Positions 34,507 through 46,198 of a stretch of 64,000 nucleotides of DNA are shown here, in pieces. A program made the position numbers and the translations under genes. Below the pieces are notes generated by a model, which did not search any database, had not been told where the DNA came from, and was given only the letters and a program-made list of their open reading frames with translations. Source of the stretch: Promethearchaeota archaeon (GTDB lineage Archaea; Asgardarchaeota; Lokiarchaeia; Sigyniarchaeales; SOKP01); contig JAEOTS010000122.1 of the NCBI GenBank assembly GCA_016839745.1, positions 7,572-71,571 on the forward strand, in the 5' to 3' direction. Each line of letters begins with the position of its first letter. The first letter of the stretch is position 1.

Positions 34507-35703
34507 TTATTTTATATGTAATTCGATTATATCATTTTCTTTTAACTCGTAATCTAAACCAACTTTTTTCTTCTCTTGTCTAGCGTCCTTCCGAATAATT
34601 GTTGCGTAATCGAGTGATTCGAGGAAACTTCTGTGGATCTTTATAGCTACATTCCGCACTGTTGGGTGAATATTGTCAATTAATAGTGGTTTTTCAGCCA
34701 CAACTCCCTTATGCATTGTATAAACCTTGATTTTTCCTAAAAATTTTAATACAATTTTTCCAAAATCCTCAGGTATTTCCTTTTTGTTTACACTCGTTCC
34801 AATTACTAATGGAAATTGTTCTGAATAATAATTTTCTAGTTCCAAAAAAGAATTTTTTGTAAGAGATAAGTCTCCCTTGGTCCCTAAGATAATAGATTTT
34901 TTGTATGTCATGGAAGGATTTAGTGTATCAACGACTTGTTCAAGATTTATCTTCCCAAAAACCTTAACAATGCCATTCCGTATGCCACCTGCTTTAGTTA
35001 TTTCTTTAATTCTCTCAGTTAATTCTTCAATGTTTTTATTTTCTTTAGCTTCGCTCGTTAAATAAAATACTTGAATCTTATTAGAACCTGTCTTCTCAAT
35101 GGTAATTGGAGGTGGTGGAACATTAAGGCGTACATGGGATTCCTGTAATTCCTTTAATAGCAAATTCATTTGTTCTTTATAATTACGCGATAAGTCTATG
35201 CAAAAGCATATTAGATCGCAAGCTCTTAATTGAGATATTATTTCTTTACCGTTTCCTATCCCATTTGCAGCCCCCTCCATAATTGAGGGCATATCAACAA
35301 TTTGATAACGAACTTTATTATGTTCATAAATACCAATTTCAGGAAGAGGAGTAAATTTACCTATCTTTTCTTTTGCAGCCCCGGTTAATAAATTCAGAAG
35401 GGATGTTTTCCCAACACCGGGAGAATGATAGTCACTTATTAGAATTAGTTGGATTCCTTCTTTTTTTATTGAAAAAGGACTAACTTGTTTACCCATAGAC
35501 TTAATGCGATTTTTTTGCGCTTCTTGTTCTCTTCTAAGTTTTGCAAGGCGCGATTTGTTTAGGGCGACTATTTTTTCAGTAGCTTTGTGTTTAGGAACTA
35601 AGGATAGATACTCTTCTAGACGCTTTATCTTTTCATCAATGGTAGTGGCTTCCAAATATTTTTGATATGCTGCTTGCGCTTCTGGTCCTATATTTGAACT
35701 CAT
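34507..35703 (-). CDS. DRG/OBG family GTPase with TGS domain (divergent G motifs)
   Basis: VPKHKATEK N-terminal helix, PGVGKTS, IVDMPSIMEGA, TKGD, TGS (VAIKIH...KVGLDYELKENDIIEL). Confidence 0.88.
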   Translation of the reverse strand: MSSNIGPEAQAAYQKYLEATTIDEKIKRLEEYLSLVPKHKATEKIVALNKSRLAKLRREQEAQKNRIKSMGKQVSPFSIKKEGIQLILISDYHSPGVGKTSLLNLLTGAAKEKIGKFTPLPEIGIYEHNKVRYQIVDMPSIMEGAANGIGNGKEIISQLRACDLICFCIDLSRNYKEQMNLLLKELQESHVRLNVPPPPITIEKTGSNKIQVFYLTSEAKENKNIEELTERIKEITKAGGIRNGIVKVFGKINLEQVVDTLNPSMTYKKSIILGTKGDLSLTKNSFLELENYYSEQFPLVIGTSVNKKEIPEDFGKIVLKFLGKIKVYTMHKGVVAEKPLLIDNIHPTVRNVAIKIHRSFLESLDYATIIRKDARQEKKKVGLDYELKENDIIELHIK

Positions 35704-35731
35704 TAAAAAAAGCCAACTCTTAAAAAATAAT

Positions 35732-36187
35732 TTAGAAAATCGATCGAAACCTATCTTCTGTTTTTAGTTTTAAATCTCCTATAATTTTATCAATTCTGGC
35801 TTCAAAATTCTTGAAAAATTTTTCTTTTTTCGAAAAAATATCGTTAAGAGAGTATCTATTTAGAAAATGAGAATTAACTTCACTTAACTGTTTTTTGACG
35901 ATACTTGAATCCGTTTCTTTCTCAGTTATAGCAAAGGAAATTAATGGCTGCTTATTTAATTCATCGCTTGGTAAAGATATTAAATCGCAATAGCAAACTA
36001 GTTTAAAAGAGGCTAAAGATATAACATTTATATCATCTCCAAACACTTCTGATGTAAAACTTTCGAGTGCAGAGAGAAATCCTGCTCTTAATTCTGGATC
36101 TAAACCTACTCCTGTATCAGAATCGTAGTATTTTATATTCAAAAGGTTTCGTATACCTAAATTTATGCCAAGTTCTAAAATAGCCAT
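35732..36187 (-). CDS. stand-alone longin-like domain protein
   Basis: DPELRAGFLSALESFTSEVFGDDINVISLASFKLV; C-terminal helix HFLNRY. Confidence 0.6.
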   Translation of the reverse strand: MAILELGINLGIRNLLNIKYYDSDTGVGLDPELRAGFLSALESFTSEVFGDDINVISLASFKLVCYCDLISLPSDELNKQPLISFAITEKETDSSIVKKQLSEVNSHFLNRYSLNDIFSKKEKFFKNFEARIDKIIGDLKLKTEDRFRSIF

Positions 36188-36301: not shown

Positions 36302-37159
36302 TTACAGCTTAAAGTGGTTTTTATAGGTAAAGAATGTGTTTTGGAGTAAAAAGCTTACTGTCATCGGTCCAACACCCCCCGGATTTGGAGTAATCCAGGA
36401 GCACTTGTCAAAAACTCCTTGATAATCAACGTCTCCACATGTTTTTCCATTTACTTTACTGATACCCACATCTATTATAACCACACCTTCTTTTATTTTT
36501 TCTTTAGTGATGAAGTTTGGTTGACCGACAGCGGTTATTAAAATGTCTGCATTCATAATGTAATCATTTATATTTACCGTTGATGTGTGACAAATTGATA
36601 CTGTTGCGTTTCTTTTTAAAAGCATGAAAAATAATGGTTTTCCAACTAAATTTGATCGGTTTATAATAACAGCATGTTTTCCCTTGATTTCTATATTATA
36701 GTACTCTAGAAGCGCTATAATCCCTTTTGGAGTACAAGGCACGAGATCTTCATTGTAGTCAAACAATTTGCCCCTATTGATTGGATGAAGCCCATCTACA
36801 TCCTTTAGAGGACTGATTATTTCATTAAAATCTTTAGTGAAAGGTTTTAATTTTTTTGGAAGAGGTTGTTGCAATATTATCCCATGAATGGTGTTATCTG
36901 CGTTTAACCTTTCAATTTCATTTATTAACGCTTCTTTTGTAATAGCTTGCTTTAAATTTACTAAAATTGATTCAATTCCAATTTCAGTGCACCTTCTTCT
37001 TTTTATGTTTAAATATAATTCCGACGCAGGATCATTACCAACTAGAACACCCGCTAATTTCGGTTTTACACCAGTTTTTTCTGAAATCAATTTTATTTTC
37101 TTTTCTAATTCAAAATTTAATTTCTGTGATAATTCTTTACCATCTAATATTTTTCCCAT
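36302..37159 (-). CDS. folD: bifunctional methylenetetrahydrofolate dehydrogenase/cyclohydrolase
   Basis: ILDGK, KDVDGLHP, PCTPKG, RSNLVGKP, NATVSICH, IDVG, TPNPGGVGPMTV. Confidence 0.96.
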   Translation of the reverse strand: MGKILDGKELSQKLNFELEKKIKLISEKTGVKPKLAGVLVGNDPASELYLNIKRRRCTEIGIESILVNLKQAITKEALINEIERLNADNTIHGIILQQPLPKKLKPFTKDFNEIISPLKDVDGLHPINRGKLFDYNEDLVPCTPKGIIALLEYYNIEIKGKHAVIINRSNLVGKPLFFMLLKRNATVSICHTSTVNINDYIMNADILITAVGQPNFITKEKIKEGVVIIDVGISKVNGKTCGDVDYQGVFDKCSWITPNPGGVGPMTVSFLLQNTFFTYKNHFKL

Positions 37160-37272
37160 AATAATCTTGACTTTTCAAGTGATAAACTTAATTTTAATCA
37201 AATATATGTAAAACAAGGTATTCATTGAAATAAATAAGTATTATTATATGCTTATTAAATGATAAAAAAAGT

Positions 37273-38382
37273 TTAAATTCTTCTCCTACGCAAAATTAAG
37301 TAAACAACTAATACGATTACTCCTATAACTGTAAGTACAATAATCAAGATTAAAAAATTAAGCTCGACCATGAAAATATCTTCGTTCAATAAATCTAGCG
37401 ATCCAAGGATTTGTAAAATTTTGAAAGCAGAATAGGATGTACTAATAGAAGAGAGTCTTTGATTGATATCTTCATTCCAATCACTAAAACCACCATCGAG
37501 AAAACTTTGATGTTCTAATACCCAATTGGAAGTTGCGACTCTATTTAATTCAGTCTCGTCTATTAATCTAATTCCTTCAACGCAGAGGTATGTACTACTT
37601 AATAATGGAGTTTTAGCGTATAAATCAGGTAAATAACCACCGTAGTGTTCAAGATTATTAGAGTCTCCGATATAATGTGATTTAAAGTAATTTAAAGTTG
37701 CAGTTTGATTAGCTAAATCATTTATTGAACCTAATTCACTAAATAAATTAACCGCAAAATATGTAGTAGTCAATGTAGATGATAAAGATTGGTTTCCTCC
37801 ATACCCTCCGTCTGTATTATTGCACGATAATACCCAAGTTTTATGGATTGTTTCATTTTCAACCGGTTCATCGATTATGGTAAATATATTATATATATAG
37901 TAAGTTGAAGCCATGTTTGCAGCATTAGATATGTTTGTAGGACTAAAGCCACCTCCGATCTGAATGGTGTCATTTATGTACGTATAAATTTGATCACGTA
38001 AAACTGAATTTAAAGAAGTTTCTAGGGATTCCAGCATGTTTAATGTTTCTAAAAGATAGTATATTTGGTAGATATCAATTTCTCCTGTCTCAAACATAGT
38101 TCGAATTTGTTCTTGTAAGTAAGCCTTTAAACCAGTTATACCAACGCTTCTAATCTCCTCAAATAAGACTTCAATAAGATAAGCATTATAAAAGTCCAAA
38201 ATTTCTATTGCGTTAGCTGTGTCTTGGGGTGATATGCCAAAACTTTCGTTTGCTTTTTGATTTTCGTAAATAAAATCGACTAAATGACTCTGACGGGTTT
38301 TTGCTAATGCTATTGGTGTAATACTTAGCATTAAAGTAATTAATAATAAAGCAAATGTTAAATTCCGAACTCTGTTTTTCAA
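37273..38382 (-). CDS. type I membrane protein with prenyltransferase/squalene-cyclase-like alpha-alpha repeats
   Basis: Signal peptide, repeats QIGGGFSP, CNNTDGGYGG, YGGYLP, QSFLDGGF each followed by STY/TTY, C-terminal TM and RRRRI tail. Confidence 0.75.
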   Translation of the reverse strand: MKNRVRNLTFALLLITLMLSITPIALAKTRQSHLVDFIYENQKANESFGISPQDTANAIEILDFYNAYLIEVLFEEIRSVGITGLKAYLQEQIRTMFETGEIDIYQIYYLLETLNMLESLETSLNSVLRDQIYTYINDTIQIGGGFSPTNISNAANMASTYYIYNIFTIIDEPVENETIHKTWVLSCNNTDGGYGGNQSLSSTLTTTYFAVNLFSELGSINDLANQTATLNYFKSHYIGDSNNLEHYGGYLPDLYAKTPLLSSTYLCVEGIRLIDETELNRVATSNWVLEHQSFLDGGFSDWNEDINQRLSSISTSYSAFKILQILGSLDLLNEDIFMVELNFLILIIVLTVIGVIVLVVYLILRRRRI

Positions 38383-38528
38383 TTAAAAAAAAACCCCAAT
38401 CTGGTTTTAACTAAATTTTAATTTTTTAAATTTAACGTGTAATTAAAAATTAACGATCTTTTGAGTTTTTAGTTAGATTATCATGTAAACTATAATAAAA
38501 ATTAGAAATAAATTGATCAAAGTTTGAT

Positions 38529-40055
38529 CTAAAAAATATCGCTAATATTCTTATATAACGCAGCACTATTGGATTGAAATTCTTCGTGGGTTACAAATAG
38601 ATTTTGAAAGCTCGGCAAGCTCCCGAGTATACTAGCGCCATTAAATATAGCAAACTGTAAGTTTTCTGGTACGAAGAATCTTACTACCTCTTCCGATGAC
38701 TCGTAAAAACCAGAAAATTCTCTAGCAGGTGGAGTATTCTTAACGATCTCAGGAGGTACCTCTGGTATCTCTGTTAATGGAAAACTTTTTCCACAATAAG
38801 GACAAAAAATCGAATCTTCATCTTCAACTTTCTTTTTGCAATTAGGGCAAATTCTCTTTCCTTTTTCACTTTTAGAATTTGTGCCTAGTTTAATGCTTCC
38901 AATTGAAAGCTCGGGTAAAATCATTCTACCATTACAAGACGGACAGAACTCTTTACCATCAGTTAGATCTACTAACGTACCACAATGTGGACAAGTATCT
39001 TCCTTCTTCTGTGATTTTTCTTTTAATTTCATTTTTTGCCTTTCTTCCCGTGAGGCTTTCACAATCTTAGGTTTTGGTATTTTTCCCAGCTGTGGGATTA
39101 ATTGTGCTAGTTCAGATCGTAGTCTCTCTTCAAATCCAGAATATGAAAGATTTCCACCCGATATCATAATATGTGAAAGAAGATCGCTCCAATAATATTT
39201 GTCAATTCCTTGCAAGCTATTTATAACCGCTTGTGGAATGTTAAGGATATTATACCCTAATAAGTTAGGTTTAAATAATACTTCTGGTGCTTCATGGAAG
39301 ATATAATTTGGTATATTAATATTAGATCCATCTGGCATTGTAAAACTAAAACTATCATCTAACTTTGGAGGGTGTTCAGGATCTAAAGCGAAAAAGCAGT
39401 TTTTTTCTTTGATATCTTTAATTATTTCGTCGACTGCACTTGATTCAATATTAATACCTTCTCTCATAAGTAAATTCTTTAAATGTTGATTTACATCTGT
39501 ACCAGCTAAAGTTAATTTTTGCACCGATTGATCAACAATTTCTCCACTCAGAATGGGGCATACCCAAGTGATTCCATCTCCACTCTCTATAACTGTACCA
39601 GTTGTTAACCCTACACTAAATAAAGACAGTATAGGGGTAGGAATCATTATTAAACTTCTGACTTTATGGGTTTCATATAAAACTCGAGCAATATATTCCT
39701 TAGTCTCCCGCTGGACAAACGGAGGTTCAGTGTATAGCACTGGATAATTAGTAAGATTTTCAATTCTTAATAGCGAATAGAAAATATAATTTAAGATTTC
39801 ATAATAATCGTTCCAATCCATTATTGCACCCCGTTCGATAGGGTGTTTTATTTTTAGAACTCCTCGCATTTTTGAAGCGTCTGATCCGATATATATATTT
39901 CGGGCGCCAACATCAACCATTACAGCTTTATATTTTTCAGTACCGGTGATGGTGGGGAAAACAAACCTAGGACTAGGCTCTCCCGCGAAACCTATCTTAG
40001 TGTAGGCTGAACCAATGTCGACGATAATCGGGGTTCCCGGTAATGGTACTGCCAT
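38529..40055 (-). CDS. actin-related protein with double zinc-ribbon insertion
   Basis: IVDIGSAYTKIGFAGEPSP, HPIERG, VLYTEPP, TTGTVIESGDG, LAGTDV, IKEK, MPDG, PEVLFKP, SGG, GASILGSL; insertion carries four CPxC. Confidence 0.93.
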   Translation of the reverse strand: MAVPLPGTPIIVDIGSAYTKIGFAGEPSPRFVFPTITGTEKYKAVMVDVGARNIYIGSDASKMRGVLKIKHPIERGAIMDWNDYYEILNYIFYSLLRIENLTNYPVLYTEPPFVQRETKEYIARVLYETHKVRSLIMIPTPILSLFSVGLTTGTVIESGDGITWVCPILSGEIVDQSVQKLTLAGTDVNQHLKNLLMREGINIESSAVDEIIKDIKEKNCFFALDPEHPPKLDDSFSFTMPDGSNINIPNYIFHEAPEVLFKPNLLGYNILNIPQAVINSLQGIDKYYWSDLLSHIMISGGNLSYSGFEERLRSELAQLIPQLGKIPKPKIVKASREERQKMKLKEKSQKKEDTCPHCGTLVDLTDGKEFCPSCNGRMILPELSIGSIKLGTNSKSEKGKRICPNCKKKVEDEDSIFCPYCGKSFPLTEIPEVPPEIVKNTPPAREFSGFYESSEEVVRFFVPENLQFAIFNGASILGSLPSFQNLFVTHEEFQSNSAALYKNISDIF

Positions 40056-40213
40056 GCTTGATCAATTAAATTTTTTAAAGGTTTATGTTCTTTTATATAA
40101 ATCTCTAAATTTAAGTATTAGTACAATAATATAATAAAATGATTTTCCTTAATTAAATAATTTTTCCAAAAGAGGAAAGATAAGTTAGAATATTTTAATT
40201 ACCAAGATCCATA

Positions 40214-40636
40214 TTAATCGATTTTTAAAGATTTTTCTAGCTTCTTTTCAATTCCTTCTAATTCGGTTAGGAGATTTTTATAAGTTTTCAGTAAATACTT
40301 GCCCCAATCGTTTAGTTTAACCCATCCCCCTCCACCAAGACCTCCTTTTCTAGTTTCTACAGGTGTTTTTCCTGATCTTTCTTTTATTTTATTTAAAATG
40401 TTCCACGCATATTTGTATGAATAACCGCACTCTTTTGCTGCTTTTGTTAAAGATTTGGGCTCGTTGTTATTAGCGTCATCAATACATTCAAGTAAATTAG
40501 CCCATCCTGACCCTAAAATATTTTTACGACCCTCATCTTGAAATTCTAGCCAGAATTTGATTCCAAAACTAATTTTACCTTTTAATTTTTCGATATTAGA
40601 GTTATCCTCCAATTTTTCACTAGAAGGTTCTTCCAT
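40214..40636 (-). CDS. ModE-like winged helix-turn-helix transcriptional regulator
   Basis: ILGSG..LL..I, SLTKAAKECGYSYKYAW, VETRKGGLGGGG.KLNDWG. Confidence 0.85.
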   Translation of the reverse strand: MEEPSSEKLEDNSNIEKLKGKISFGIKFWLEFQDEGRKNILGSGWANLLECIDDANNNEPKSLTKAAKECGYSYKYAWNILNKIKERSGKTPVETRKGGLGGGGWVKLNDWGKYLLKTYKNLLTELEGIEKKLEKSLKID

Positions 40637-43462: not shown

Positions 43463-46198
43463 ATGTTTAATTTGGAAGAGTTTGAACAAGATCAAGTAAT
43501 TTACCCCCTAGTTGAGAAACTCGATAAGTTACTTGATAAAAGTAAGACTGAAAAAGTAGAAAAAGTAATTAAACAACTAGAGGAACTATTAGTAGAACAA
43601 AAACATGCGATTCTTATTTCCTATATTTTGAGTATCTTAGCAGAAAGTGATTTTAACCTAATAAACGAGAGCGTCATTAAGAATTTGGAAAGTTACATAA
43701 ATACAAATGATCCAAAATTAAAGGTTAATACTCTTATAGTAATTGGATTTGCTATGCTCTCAAAACAAAAGTATCTAGATGAATATTGTCCGAAATTCAT
43801 TGAAAATTTAGGTGACTTAAACAAAGATGTACGAGATAATATCTATTATTTTTTACAGGAGATTGGAGAGAAAAATCCCAAATTACTATGCGTATATAAA
43901 AAAGAATTCATAAATGCTTTATTGACTGAAGACGCTGAAGAAAATCTAATTTCTATAATGAGTTTTCTAGAAAAGTGCAGTGAATTTGATTTTGAACAGT
44001 TATACAGTTTAAGGGAAGTCTTGAAATCACTCATAAATCAACATTTTACTAAAGATTCCTCCAAAATTTATTCAAAAACATTAACCTTAGTTAAAATTAT
44101 TTTCCCATCTGTGAAAGATTTAGGTATTGAAGAATTTGGATTAAAAGAGTTATTAGAAACGATTCAGAATATTTTTTTGATGAAAAAATACAATTTTACT
44201 GAAATTTCTAAGGAGACGGGAGTAGGTTTAAAAGATTTTGTTAAAAGTATGAGTATAAAAAACCAAAAAGATTGTAAGATATATTTCTACACTAGCAATA
44301 AAGGACAAGAAAATGTCTATTTTTATGAAATCGAGAAAGAAAAACTGATAAATATATTCGGGAAGGAAGAAAAATTACAGAAGAAAAACATCCTTAAAAT
44401 TTTTTCCCCTATTATTCGTACTGAACAGGAATTGAGATTATTTTTAAATACCTTAATTAAGTTGGGGCACATTAAGGGGCATTATTCAAAATTGGGTTAT
44501 TTTTACTCTTACAACTACATAAAATCAGATCTAAAAGACTCATTTCATAATAATGGGATGGTAAATCTTAAAAAATTTGATTATCTGCCTCCTGATTTTA
44601 TTAATGAAATTATAAGAGATATATCGAATCTAACTAAACAGGTTTTTCTGACAGGAAAAGATAATGCTGCGTACTACTCCTTGAAAAGCATTCAGCAACA
44701 AATTAACACTGAAGCAGCAAAAAATACTGCAATTGATTTAAAATCATATAGAGAACGCTTAACGGAGAAAGATTTTATTAAATTGATTAAAAATTTACCA
44801 AAAGGTTATTTAACTTATTTTAGAACAGGAACTCAATGGTTGACTAATGTAGGATTATTAAATGTCAAAAAAGAAATTGAAAATTCTCGATTAATTGGTT
44901 ATTATTCAATTCCAATGCTCTCAGATAAGTTAAATGTAAAGAGAGAATTGTTAGTTCAGATTTTTGAAAGTTTTATTGATATTAGGAGCGGAATATTTGA
45001 CAAGAACAAAGAAATTTTCTATTATTCAAAATTTCTAAATCAAAAAATCGAAGAAATATACTCAATAAAGAACCAAAATGAAAGAAATGTACAGATAAAT
45101 CTGATAGCTAAAAATTTAAACATCGATAGAAGCCATATACTTACAAAATTAGACGAAAATTTAAAACTAATAGGAGAAGAAATAAAAGGAATGGATTTGA
45201 TTCAAATCGAAGATTACATTGAAAAAACAGGCATGTCATATAATTTGTTTATTGAATTTATCAATAATTTAGGATTAAATTATTTCAAAAAAGGAGAATT
45301 CCTCATCTTTAACGAGAATAAAATCGAGGAATCCAAAAAAGAGATAAAATTGGAATTAATCGACAAATCTAGATCTGAGAATGTGATTTATTTGGGAGAT
45401 ATAGATGTTACTTCTAGTATTGTTGAGAATTTGCTTAAAGAGCTCCAAAGCGATGAAAAAATTAAGGGCATTTTTCATATTCATGAAGGGGAGCTAGTCT
45501 TTTACACAGAAAAAGGAATAGAAAATTTGATGCTAGATAATAGTTTTATGTTTTCTTTCAATGATTTTTTTTACGGGAAGATTCTAGATGATAAGGATAA
45601 AGAGATTTTAACATCTATTTTTAATAATTTATTGAGTAAAAATCTGTTGAAAGGTACTTTTGACGAAGAAACATTAACATTTGCTAGTTCAGAAGTAGTT
45701 TTTGCACAGGATTATAATATAATATTATTTGACTTTTCGAAAATGATAATGGAATACATAAAAATATTCAATACTGAGTTCGAAAAAATTAAAAAAATCT
45801 TAACAAAACAGAACGAGACAATATATCCTCAAGAGGTTCGGATGATTCAAGGAATAATTGATGTAATTAACGAAAAATATATCCATTGGAGAAACGGAGT
45901 AGAAGCGTTCGTGAGAAAAGCTAATACTTCACTTTTAAAAAAACAAGGGTATACTGTTAAAAAATATAAATCTATTTCACTTTCTACAGGAAAAAAAGAA
46001 GATGTAAAATTATTTGAAGAGGATCCGGAAGTTATAGATCTAATATCAAAATTTAACAATTGGGTTAAATTATTTAATGAATTAGAGCTTAAATATGGAA
46101 ATGTTATATTTTATCAAAAAAGGTTAATAAATGATGCAGGAAATATTGGAAATCAAAAAACCTTAAATGATCTGTTAGAAAGATTAAATCTAACATAA
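43463..46198 (+). CDS. large protein: N-terminal HEAT/ARM-like repeats, tandem winged-helix (PCI/UFL1-like) units, C-terminal helical bundle
   Basis: HEAT-like D.....VR.N/D.KLK.N units; recurring L...G.I.G.F/Y wH ends (LIKLGHIKGHY, LQSDEKIKGIF, LLSKNLLKGTFD). Confidence 0.6.
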   Translation: MFNLEEFEQDQVIYPLVEKLDKLLDKSKTEKVEKVIKQLEELLVEQKHAILISYILSILAESDFNLINESVIKNLESYINTNDPKLKVNTLIVIGFAMLSKQKYLDEYCPKFIENLGDLNKDVRDNIYYFLQEIGEKNPKLLCVYKKEFINALLTEDAEENLISIMSFLEKCSEFDFEQLYSLREVLKSLINQHFTKDSSKIYSKTLTLVKIIFPSVKDLGIEEFGLKELLETIQNIFLMKKYNFTEISKETGVGLKDFVKSMSIKNQKDCKIYFYTSNKGQENVYFYEIEKEKLINIFGKEEKLQKKNILKIFSPIIRTEQELRLFLNTLIKLGHIKGHYSKLGYFYSYNYIKSDLKDSFHNNGMVNLKKFDYLPPDFINEIIRDISNLTKQVFLTGKDNAAYYSLKSIQQQINTEAAKNTAIDLKSYRERLTEKDFIKLIKNLPKGYLTYFRTGTQWLTNVGLLNVKKEIENSRLIGYYSIPMLSDKLNVKRELLVQIFESFIDIRSGIFDKNKEIFYYSKFLNQKIEEIYSIKNQNERNVQINLIAKNLNIDRSHILTKLDENLKLIGEEIKGMDLIQIEDYIEKTGMSYNLFIEFINNLGLNYFKKGEFLIFNENKIEESKKEIKLELIDKSRSENVIYLGDIDVTSSIVENLLKELQSDEKIKGIFHIHEGELVFYTEKGIENLMLDNSFMFSFNDFFYGKILDDKDKEILTSIFNNLLSKNLLKGTFDEETLTFASSEVVFAQDYNIILFDFSKMIMEYIKIFNTEFEKIKKILTKQNETIYPQEVRMIQGIIDVINEKYIHWRNGVEAFVRKANTSLLKKQGYTVKKYKSISLSTGKKEDVKLFEEDPEVIDLISKFNNWVKLFNELELKYGNVIFYQKRLINDAGNIGNQKTLNDLLERLNLT

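Follow-up and report, generated by a model that had tools for sequence, protein, structure and literature searches.

What could an actin-related protein (ARP) that carries zinc ribbons inside its actin fold do in an Asgard archaeon that also encodes Lokiactin? The question is raised by a gene at positions 38529..40055 (-) of a 64,000-nucleotide stretch of contig JAEOTS010000122.1 from a Promethearchaeota archaeon; this whole stretch is called the window below. The gene is complete, as judged from the open reading frame list, the translation and Pfam, and encodes 508 amino acids (aa) followed by a stop codon. A first-pass annotation had described its product, here named the zinc-ribbon ARP, as a non-canonical, possibly hydrolysis-poor Asgard ARP whose ribbons recruit partners. 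We find that the zinc-ribbon ARP is a conserved, lineage-specific clade restricted to one order of Lokiarchaeia. It keeps a Lokiactin-like pointed face, and its barbed subdomain-3 face around the insert is diverged.

An actin fold interrupted by two zinc ribbons

The Pfam Actin family (PF00022) matched the protein with an E-value of 3.6e-71 (240.4 bits, cut-off 27) in two stretches flanking an insert. In the phmmer alignment with yeast actin (1yag), query residues 10-326 corresponded to actin 8-327 and query residues 458-498 to actin 327-367. Because the alignment splits there, residues 323-457 were defined as a 135-aa insert at actin residue 326/327, in a surface loop of subdomain 3 (38685..39089 (-)); the first-pass annotation had placed it, nearly identically, at about 38690-39089. 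The core upstream of the insert, residues 1-322 (39090..40055 (-), matching actin 8-326), comprises subdomains 1, 2, 4 and most of subdomain 3. Residues 458-508 (38532..38684 (-), matching actin 327-375) complete subdomain 3 and supply the C-terminal portion of subdomain 1. In the family alignment and in the model, the equivalent of the D-loop, EKYKAVMVDVGARNI, occupies residues 38-52 (39900..39944 (-)); the D-loop-like segment pointed out earlier, KYKAVMVDVGARN, is indeed present.

The insert begins with a Lys-rich flexible linker (residues 325-353, 38997..39083 (-)) that opens on a conserved LPQLGxIPKP motif. Zinc ribbon 1, CPHC-x12-CPSC, follows at residues 354-376 (38928..38996 (-)) with cysteines C355, C358, C371 and C374. 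After a variable inter-ribbon linker (residues 377-401, 38853..38927 (-)) comes zinc ribbon 2, CPNC-x11-CPYC, at residues 402-423 (38787..38852 (-)), with cysteines C403, C406, C418 and C421; the Pfam Zn_ribbon_3 match spans residues 401-423. A Pro-rich variable linker (residues 424-445, 38721..38786 (-)) then leads to a return segment containing E446-F447, predicted as a strand (residues 446-457, 38685..38720 (-)). The two cysteine patterns, the Lys-rich stretch before them and the Pro-rich linker after them had all been announced by the first-pass annotation and can be read in the translation. Each ribbon has two CxxC knuckles, and the insert scored above the Pfam cut-offs for both Zn_ribbon_3 (PF13248; 41.5 bits, cut-off 27) and DZR (PF12773; 29.5 bits, cut-off 27.3). 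Zinc binding is thus predicted from the sequence.

An AlphaFold2 model computed from a 120-sequence alignment had a mean predicted local distance difference test (pLDDT) score of 80.7 and a predicted template modelling score of 0.73. The pLDDT was mostly above 90 in the actin core, about 91-94 for residues 458-508 and about 70 for both ribbons. Values below 50 were found in the linkers (333-348, 380-399 and 428-444) and at the tip of the D-loop (45-50). Two short strands, 327-329 and 447-450, stand at opposite ends of the insert. With Foldseek, the core superposed on actin chains with a template modelling (TM) score of about 0.9, normalised to the target. The four-subdomain actin fold is therefore complete, as had been claimed. 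Among the sequences of solved structures, 162 distinct chains matched the zinc-ribbon ARP at E up to 0.001, headed by 9wc4_A, 'HC1 actin' (250.6 bits), yeast actin 1yag (236.8 bits) and Arp1 5nw4_G (231.8 bits).

Conservation of the insert and distribution of the gene

Of 8000 candidates scored in a protein search, 314 proteins matched at E up to 0.001. The 120 that were listed are 61-95% identical to the query. The same architecture was found in 114 of these 120, at a length of 498-511 aa. The other six measure 372-490 aa; two of them, P0029 and P0050, resemble truncated and miscalled gene calls. Precomputed zinc-ribbon Pfam families stand beside PF00022 in 119 of the 120, and P0029, the only one lacking them, still has four CxxC motifs. 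All eight cysteines of the insert are invariant in an alignment of 34 relatives, as are LPQLGxIPKP at its start and E446-F447 near its end. In the 120-sequence alignment, ribbon 1 keeps its four cysteines without exception, and conservation is at least 90% at the cysteines of ribbon 2 and at E446 and F447.

Identity to the window's protein was computed by segment for 114 family members and for five distant orthologues. It was 0.77 in the family and 0.43 in the distant orthologues for the core, 0.75 and 0.42 for ribbon 1, and 0.66 and 0.39 for ribbon 2. For the E446-F447 return segment, the values were 0.58 and 0.27. The Lys-rich linker gave 0.46 and 0.24, the inter-ribbon linker 0.35 and 0.06, and the Pro-rich linker 0.34 and 0.10. 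The ribbons are therefore conserved about like the core whereas the linkers are not, which marks the ribbons as folded modules under selection, held by flexible tethers. Across the 120 members, the Lys-rich stretch carries a median net charge of +4, with a range from -8 to +10; two distant orthologues are at -8 and -6. We thus rejected this stretch as a conserved membrane anchor; an electrostatic one is unlikely with such a range of charges.

Outside ARPs, the ribbons showed a weak, sub-threshold likeness to those of RNA polymerase subunit P and YacG (E 0.003-0.008). An ESM Atlas search with the insert alone as query returned no usable match. Candidates for standalone copies of the insert were also rejected: L105 and L106 are ARP genes cut by contig ends, and L107-L110 are generic N-terminal zinc ribbons on membrane proteins. 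The latter, the double ribbons L107 and L109 (G210:C34 and G195:C271), L108 and L110, are the nearest non-ARP matches to the insert. In related genomes, such generic double zinc ribbons form the N-terminus of membrane proteins with one or several membrane passes.

The distribution of the insert was examined by an insert-only search of 400 genomes of the phylum (E up to 1e-5), a query that undercounts distant orthologues. Matches were found in 145 of the 400 genomes. The window's own family accounted for 128 of its 134 genomes, and three sister families for 1 of 1, 7 of 14 and 2 of 4. Beyond the order, the matches of the insert were all weak (E about 1e-6) and fell on short generic ribbons. With the whole protein as query, an orthologue was detected in all five genomes examined from two sister families, at 40-47% identity and in frames of 514-560 aa. 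The ribbons, two in four of these orthologues and a single one in L088, always lie at the same site. No orthologue was found in five genomes (82-93% complete) of two families from other orders of the class; there, the best match was a Lokiactin-type frame of about 380 aa. In a library of 1.84 billion proteins clustered at 50% identity, the family and its distant orthologues make up seven representatives, P0122-P0128. Six were read along their whole length: five have two ribbons and P0127 has one; P0125 ends after ribbon 1. Next in the library came actins of eukaryotes, at about 36% identity, together with gene models in which actins are in tandem or fused.

Another order, without the zinc-ribbon ARP, contains actin-like matches of 28-32% identity within frames of 778-834 aa (G123:C314:4073-5041, G125:C172:16582-17556 and G124:C99:4016-4987), which may be a different kind of extended ARP. 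Submitters have labelled close relatives Promethearchaeota, Hodarchaeota, Hermodarchaeota, Thorarchaeota and Odinarchaeota, and even with a bacterial name. Thus L011 (DATKTW010000100.1) and other relatives of 61-85% identity come from metagenome-assembled genomes (MAGs) labelled bacterium or other Asgard phyla. Such labels likely reflect mis-binning or loose labelling. Because all these relatives are at least 61% identical to the query, the submitters' labels were not used to establish the distribution.

Could the architecture result from an artefact of assembly or gene calling, in which an actin gene was fused with a zinc-ribbon gene? Nothing was found in favour of this. The frame is open and continuous over 38529-40055. 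The 114 listed relatives of the same length and architecture come from many sources, and the 128 family genomes that hold the gene include single-contig genomes. In addition, contigs from three independent DNA runs, one of which may be from the source sample, bridge both junctions of the insert. These observations refute the assembly chimera envisaged by the first-pass annotation, to which we give practically no chance. A single 233-nucleotide contig from the metatranscriptomic library X19 aligned at 38883-39115, over ribbon 1 and the linker, with four differences. It is a weak hint that the gene of a close relative is transcribed, as such libraries can contain DNA.

Relation to Lokiactin and other actins

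Five actin-family genes are present in the window's genome, an assembly of 3.53 Mb in 192 contigs with a completeness of 89%. These encode two 381-aa Lokiactins, a 371-aa ARP, a 398-aa ARP and the zinc-ribbon ARP. The Lokiactin genes L001 (1474-2616 (+)) and L002 (1498-2640 (-)) lie on different contigs, and their products are 81% identical to each other. In three single-contig genomes of sister families, one Lokiactin-type match of about 380 aa was seen in each. The zinc-ribbon ARP is about 39% identical to Lokiactin, and about 36-40% identical when Lokiactin and eukaryotic actin are taken together.

A quick maximum-likelihood tree was computed from 72 rows: 17 zinc-ribbon proteins, the four paralogues of the window's genome, 12 sister-family paralogues and 39 of 150 library representatives. 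L095, a fragment of 19 aa, and L100, which is partial, were excluded, and library rows were restricted to 355-440 aa minus two partial ones. Columns were kept when half or more of the rows had a residue there, which left 376 and removed the insert. All 17 zinc-ribbon proteins fell on one branch, with a support of 100 in the SH-like approximate likelihood ratio test, apart from the Lokiactins and from two other ARP clades. In the backbone, 28 of 69 inner branches stayed open. Placed outside the Lokiactin clade, longer than the roughly 380 aa of Lokiactin and interrupted by an insert that Lokiactin lacks, the protein is an Asgard ARP distinct from Lokiactin, as the first-pass annotation had held. 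Ten of the 39 library representatives were looked up: five are nameless and five are called 'actin', 'actin-like' or 'actin-related protein'. No Arp1, Arp2 or Arp3 appeared among the names of these ten, and the tree holds no named Arp1-10. The scores of the zinc-ribbon ARP against Protein Data Bank (PDB) chains are nearly equal for Arp1 and actin.

The two filament faces

Residues of actin that make contacts in the filament were listed from the structural literature. The lists were fixed before scoring and mapped onto the protein via a MAFFT alignment. We then compared the zinc-ribbon ARP with the genome's own Lokiactin using mean BLOSUM62 scores, the whole core giving 1.91. The D-loop scored 2.07, residues 61-65 3.6, residues 200-208 1.56 and residues 241-247 2.86. 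Scores of 0.17, 0.6, 0.88 and 0.5 were obtained for residues 283-294, residues 322-326, the W-loop and the C-terminus, respectively. The two halves of the hydrophobic cleft gave 2.6 and 2.0. Conservation within the family was 0.81 overall; it lay at 0.81-1.0 in the pointed-face sets and at 0.68-0.69 in residues 283-294 and the W-loop. The D-loop is nearly invariant in the family, with an identity of 0.40 to that of Lokiactin and of 0.13 to that of fungal actin.

In a second alignment, where scores were pooled, the pointed face reached 2.36 and the barbed face (subdomain 3, W-loop and C-terminus) 0.34; the overall value was 1.78. The same asymmetry was observed in all nine zinc-ribbon members tested, with pointed scores of 1.94-3.31 and barbed scores of -0.69 to 0.84. 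When random block sets of equal sizes were drawn, 65 out of 5000 reached the observed face difference.

The 371-aa ARP clade (L003 in the window's genome; L096-L099) does not have the consistent asymmetry shown by the zinc-ribbon ARP. In this clade, the pointed score exceeded the barbed one in two of four proteins (ARP371, 1.64 vs 1.03; par_L098, 1.89 vs 1.16), was nearly equal to it in par_L097 (1.64 vs 1.35) and was lower in par_L096 (1.25 vs 2.03). The cleft is the most Lokiactin-like part of these proteins (2.46-2.85), and their pointed face scores at or below the overall value. This hints at a complementary role of the 371-aa ARP at the pointed end.

The active site

Active-site residues were mapped in 120 members through the 375-aa fungal actin P0300. 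The nucleotide-binding residues D11, K18, G156, G158, K213, E214, G301 and G302 are invariant in all of them. In actin, Q137 and H161 position and activate the attacking water. At the Q137 position, the 120 members have T in 84% of cases, otherwise S or A, and never Q. At the H161 position, W is found in 97%, and the five distant orthologues have W, Y, H, S or T there; the D154 position is E in 97%. In the window's protein, Q137 aligns to T140 and H161 to W164. The T and W noticed by the first-pass annotation are therefore there, and the two residues of a catalytically competent actin are replaced family-wide. Since Q137 is lost and the nucleotide-holding residues are kept, the zinc-ribbon ARP is predicted to bind ATP and most likely hydrolyses it slowly or not at all. 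Of the earlier proposal of poor hydrolysis, the replacement of the hydrolysis residues thus holds for the whole family, and poor hydrolysis itself would be its probable consequence.

Possible roles of the zinc-ribbon ARP

A subunit whose pointed face is intact and whose barbed face is altered would be expected to add to a barbed end and not to be elongated from. We tentatively favour, at somewhat less than an even chance, an ATP-binding, hydrolysis-poor ARP that would dock on Lokiactin barbed ends and tether partners through its ribbons. In such a mechanism, the pointed face of the ARP (the D-loop, residues 61-65 and the subdomain-4 loops) would dock onto the barbed end of a Lokiactin filament, and the docked ARP would prevent or change further growth at that end. 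One or two zinc ribbons on their flexible linkers would then tie the filament end to a partner. The binding to Lokiactin, the capping and the role of the ribbons are all steps that we infer. The first-pass annotation had left the choice between a capper, a nucleator and an adaptor; the comparison of the faces favours a barbed-end binder or capper and disfavours an Arp2/3-like nucleator, as the pointed face is the one that is kept.

Several points weigh against capping. The insertion site is flanked by actin K326 and K328, which we take to be on the outer filament surface, so that the insert need not block polymerisation. The title of PDB entry 9zbp links these two residues to tropomyosin. The hydrophobic barbed-end cleft is not degraded (2.23 vs 1.78 overall), and a ligand or another subunit could bind there. 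The charge of the Lys-rich linker varies too widely to be called conserved. In addition, the interface sets are small (36 and 32 positions), taken from the F-actin literature and mapped by alignment rather than measured on a structure of this protein, and the tree comes from a quick method that leaves the inner branches mentioned above open.

The retained cleft and an insertion at actin 326/327, a side-binder surface according to the title of 9zbp (K326/328Q actin-tropomyosin complex), would fit a subunit that co-polymerises with Lokiactin or decorates the side of its filaments, with the ribbons projecting outward as attachment points. We consider this unlikely, because a subunit inside a filament would need both faces, whereas the parts that resemble Lokiactin least are the barbed subdomain-3 face, the W-loop and the C-terminus, and these are conserved below average within the family. 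The lower conservation of this face and of the W-loop is also unexpected for a self-interface. It makes rather improbable a homopolymer or homodimer of the zinc-ribbon ARP, that is, a second actin-like filament system cross-linked through the ribbons, although the complete actin fold with its conserved D-loop and cleft would suit one. Moreover, Q137 is lost, and according to PMC9834061 the non-Lokiactin homologues of a cultured relative, taken as a group, are transcribed several-fold below Lokiactin. A slim chance is left to an Arp2/3-like nucleator or pointed-end cap that would template a new filament from its own barbed face. Some eukaryotic ARPs do act in this way, and an Arp3 insert at this loop would point in the same direction, but the asymmetry is here the opposite, the pointed face being kept and the barbed face diverged. 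Moreover, the 60 best PDB sequence matches consist of actins and Arp1, without any chain of Arp2/3.

It is also conceivable, though unlikely, that the protein does not act on filaments and works instead like a nuclear-type ARP or an adaptor. It would then be a monomeric, ATP-locked scaffold, and its basic stretch and ribbons would serve to bind nucleic acid or a partner in signalling or regulation. The loss of the catalytic Q is in line with this, as are the zinc ribbons and Lys-rich stretches, which often bind nucleic acid, the weak likeness to RNA polymerase subunit P and YacG, and a ModE-like helix-turn-helix gene located upstream in 70 of 80 loci (see below). However, the ribbon matches are generic, and the positive charge of the linker gives way to -8 and -6 in two distant orthologues. 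Without an actin-type partner, it is also difficult to account for a D-loop and a pointed face that are among the most conserved parts and resemble those of Lokiactin.

Comparison with known systems

The zinc-ribbon ARP resembles Lokiactin and eukaryotic actin by its fold, its nucleotide-holding residues and a D-loop of the Lokiactin kind. It differs from them by its separate clade, its 135-aa insert, its diverged barbed subdomain-3 face and the changes Q137 to T, H161 to W and D154 to E. Arp1 (centractin, 5nw4_G) scores nearly as actin itself does, and the automatic JGI name 'centractin' is carried by four relatives (P0028, P0031, P0114). Arp1 keeps both filament faces and polymerises; in contrast to the protein described here, it lacks zinc ribbons. 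In Arp3, which acts from the pointed end, it is the barbed face that is conserved. The zinc-ribbon ARP conserves the opposite face, and Arp3 lacks a zinc ribbon. According to PMC4947185, the function of Arp3 depends on inserts in its actin core. Liu et al. (2013, J Biol Chem) reportedly placed an insert of Arp3 at the same loop, in line with the remark of the first-pass annotation.

The barbed-end docking favoured above recalls CapZ and gelsolin in function only, through the proposed occupancy of the barbed end and the linking. These two proteins are unrelated to it in sequence and fold, and the cap proposed here would be an actin-fold protein. No eukaryotic ARP is known to cap barbed ends. 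As for the ribbons, they share with DZR (PF12773) and Zn_ribbon_3 (PF13248) modules the two CxxC knuckle pairs per ribbon, with scores above the Pfam cut-offs. They differ from generic double zinc ribbons by sitting inside an actin fold, and the family names are silent on their ligand.

Rodrigues-Oliveira et al. (2022, PMC9834061) have described a cultured Lokiarchaeon strain with four actin homologues. In the accessible part of that article, three of the four cluster with Asgard and eukaryotic ARPs and are transcribed below Lokiactin. The zinc-ribbon orthologues of sister-family genomes are 40-47% identical to the window's protein, with the insert at the same site. The word 'zinc' does not occur in the available text of PMC9834061, whose supplements may show the architecture. 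The accessible part of a 2026 motility paper (PMC13716822) does not discuss the ARPs of its archaeon. More generally, no Asgard actin or ARP with a zinc ribbon was found described in the open full-text literature, including the portions available of PMC10936438 and 10.1101/2020.10.19.343400; supplements such as asCOG tables may list the architecture. The gene family is present in databases and published trees, and its architecture and the mechanism that it implies were not found in print.

The zinc-ribbon ARP is a candidate end-regulating or anchoring factor of the archaeal cytoskeleton, present in nearly every genome of its family. It indicates that ARPs have specialised by domain insertion into the actin core in archaea as well as in eukaryotes. 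The insert also offers a handle for finding new partners of the archaeal cytoskeleton.

Genomic neighbourhood

The gene context was studied in 80 loci from named MAGs, all with a zinc-ribbon ARP at least 61% identical to the query, neighbours being counted on the same strand. Five genomes from across the order (L111-L115), with an ARP of 35-44% identity, served as distant context. Upstream lies the gene of a 140-aa ModE-like helix-turn-helix protein (40214..40636 (-); NCBIfam ModE_repress, E 6.9e-14, below cut-off), which is also found in three of the five distant genomes. Directly downstream, a gene for a 369-aa alpha/alpha-toroid protein (37273..38382 (-); Pfam Prenyltrans, E 4.8e-19) is present in 78 of the 80 loci; it directly follows the ARP in all five distant genomes, at 25-28% identity. 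The next gene, folD-like by a label taken from reading of the sequence alone (36302..37159 (-)), occurs in 75 of the 80 loci and in all five distant genomes. Further downstream, at 34507-36187 (-), are a 151-aa protein, conserved in 72 loci, and a GTPase with MMR_HSR1 and TGS domains, conserved in 70. The 151-aa protein has no Pfam or NCBIfam family. The order of helix-turn-helix, ARP, toroid and folD-like genes (36302-40636 (-)) persists across the order, the other neighbours being lost in the five distant genomes. Co-transcription is not implied, since the intergenic gaps at the ARP locus are 113-158 bp and a TATA-box-like element, TTATATAAAA (40091..40100 (-), read from the sequence), stands 36-45 nucleotides upstream of the ATG. 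With a genomic GC content of about 30%, little should be made of the element itself.

The toroid protein was modelled by AlphaFold2 with a pLDDT of 88 and has terminal helices at residues 2-20 and 343-368. Its Foldseek matches are prenyltransferase beta subunits (TM score about 0.6). The N-terminal helix is signal-like, and the C-terminal one is a hydrophobic membrane helix followed by an R/K-rich tail, R/K-R-R-R-I. By the positive-inside rule, the toroid domain would face outward, and the protein is probably surface-exposed. A more daring version of barbed-end docking, which we regard as a long shot, draws in this neighbour, whose gene stays paired with that of the ARP across the order even at 25-28% identity of the toroid protein and 35-44% of the ARP: the zinc-ribbon ARP would be the cytoplasmic half of a link between cytoskeleton and surface, capping Lokiactin barbed ends while its ribbons tie them to the membrane at the toroid protein. 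If true, archaea would have a counterpart of the way in which barbed ends are anchored at adhesions or at the tips of protrusions, and the ARP would be the first barbed-end cap with an actin fold.

Elsewhere in the window, a 911-aa protein (43463-46198 (+)) gave a weak match to the HEAT repeats of condensin Cnd1 (E 3.5e-6, 27.6 bits, cut-off 26.4).

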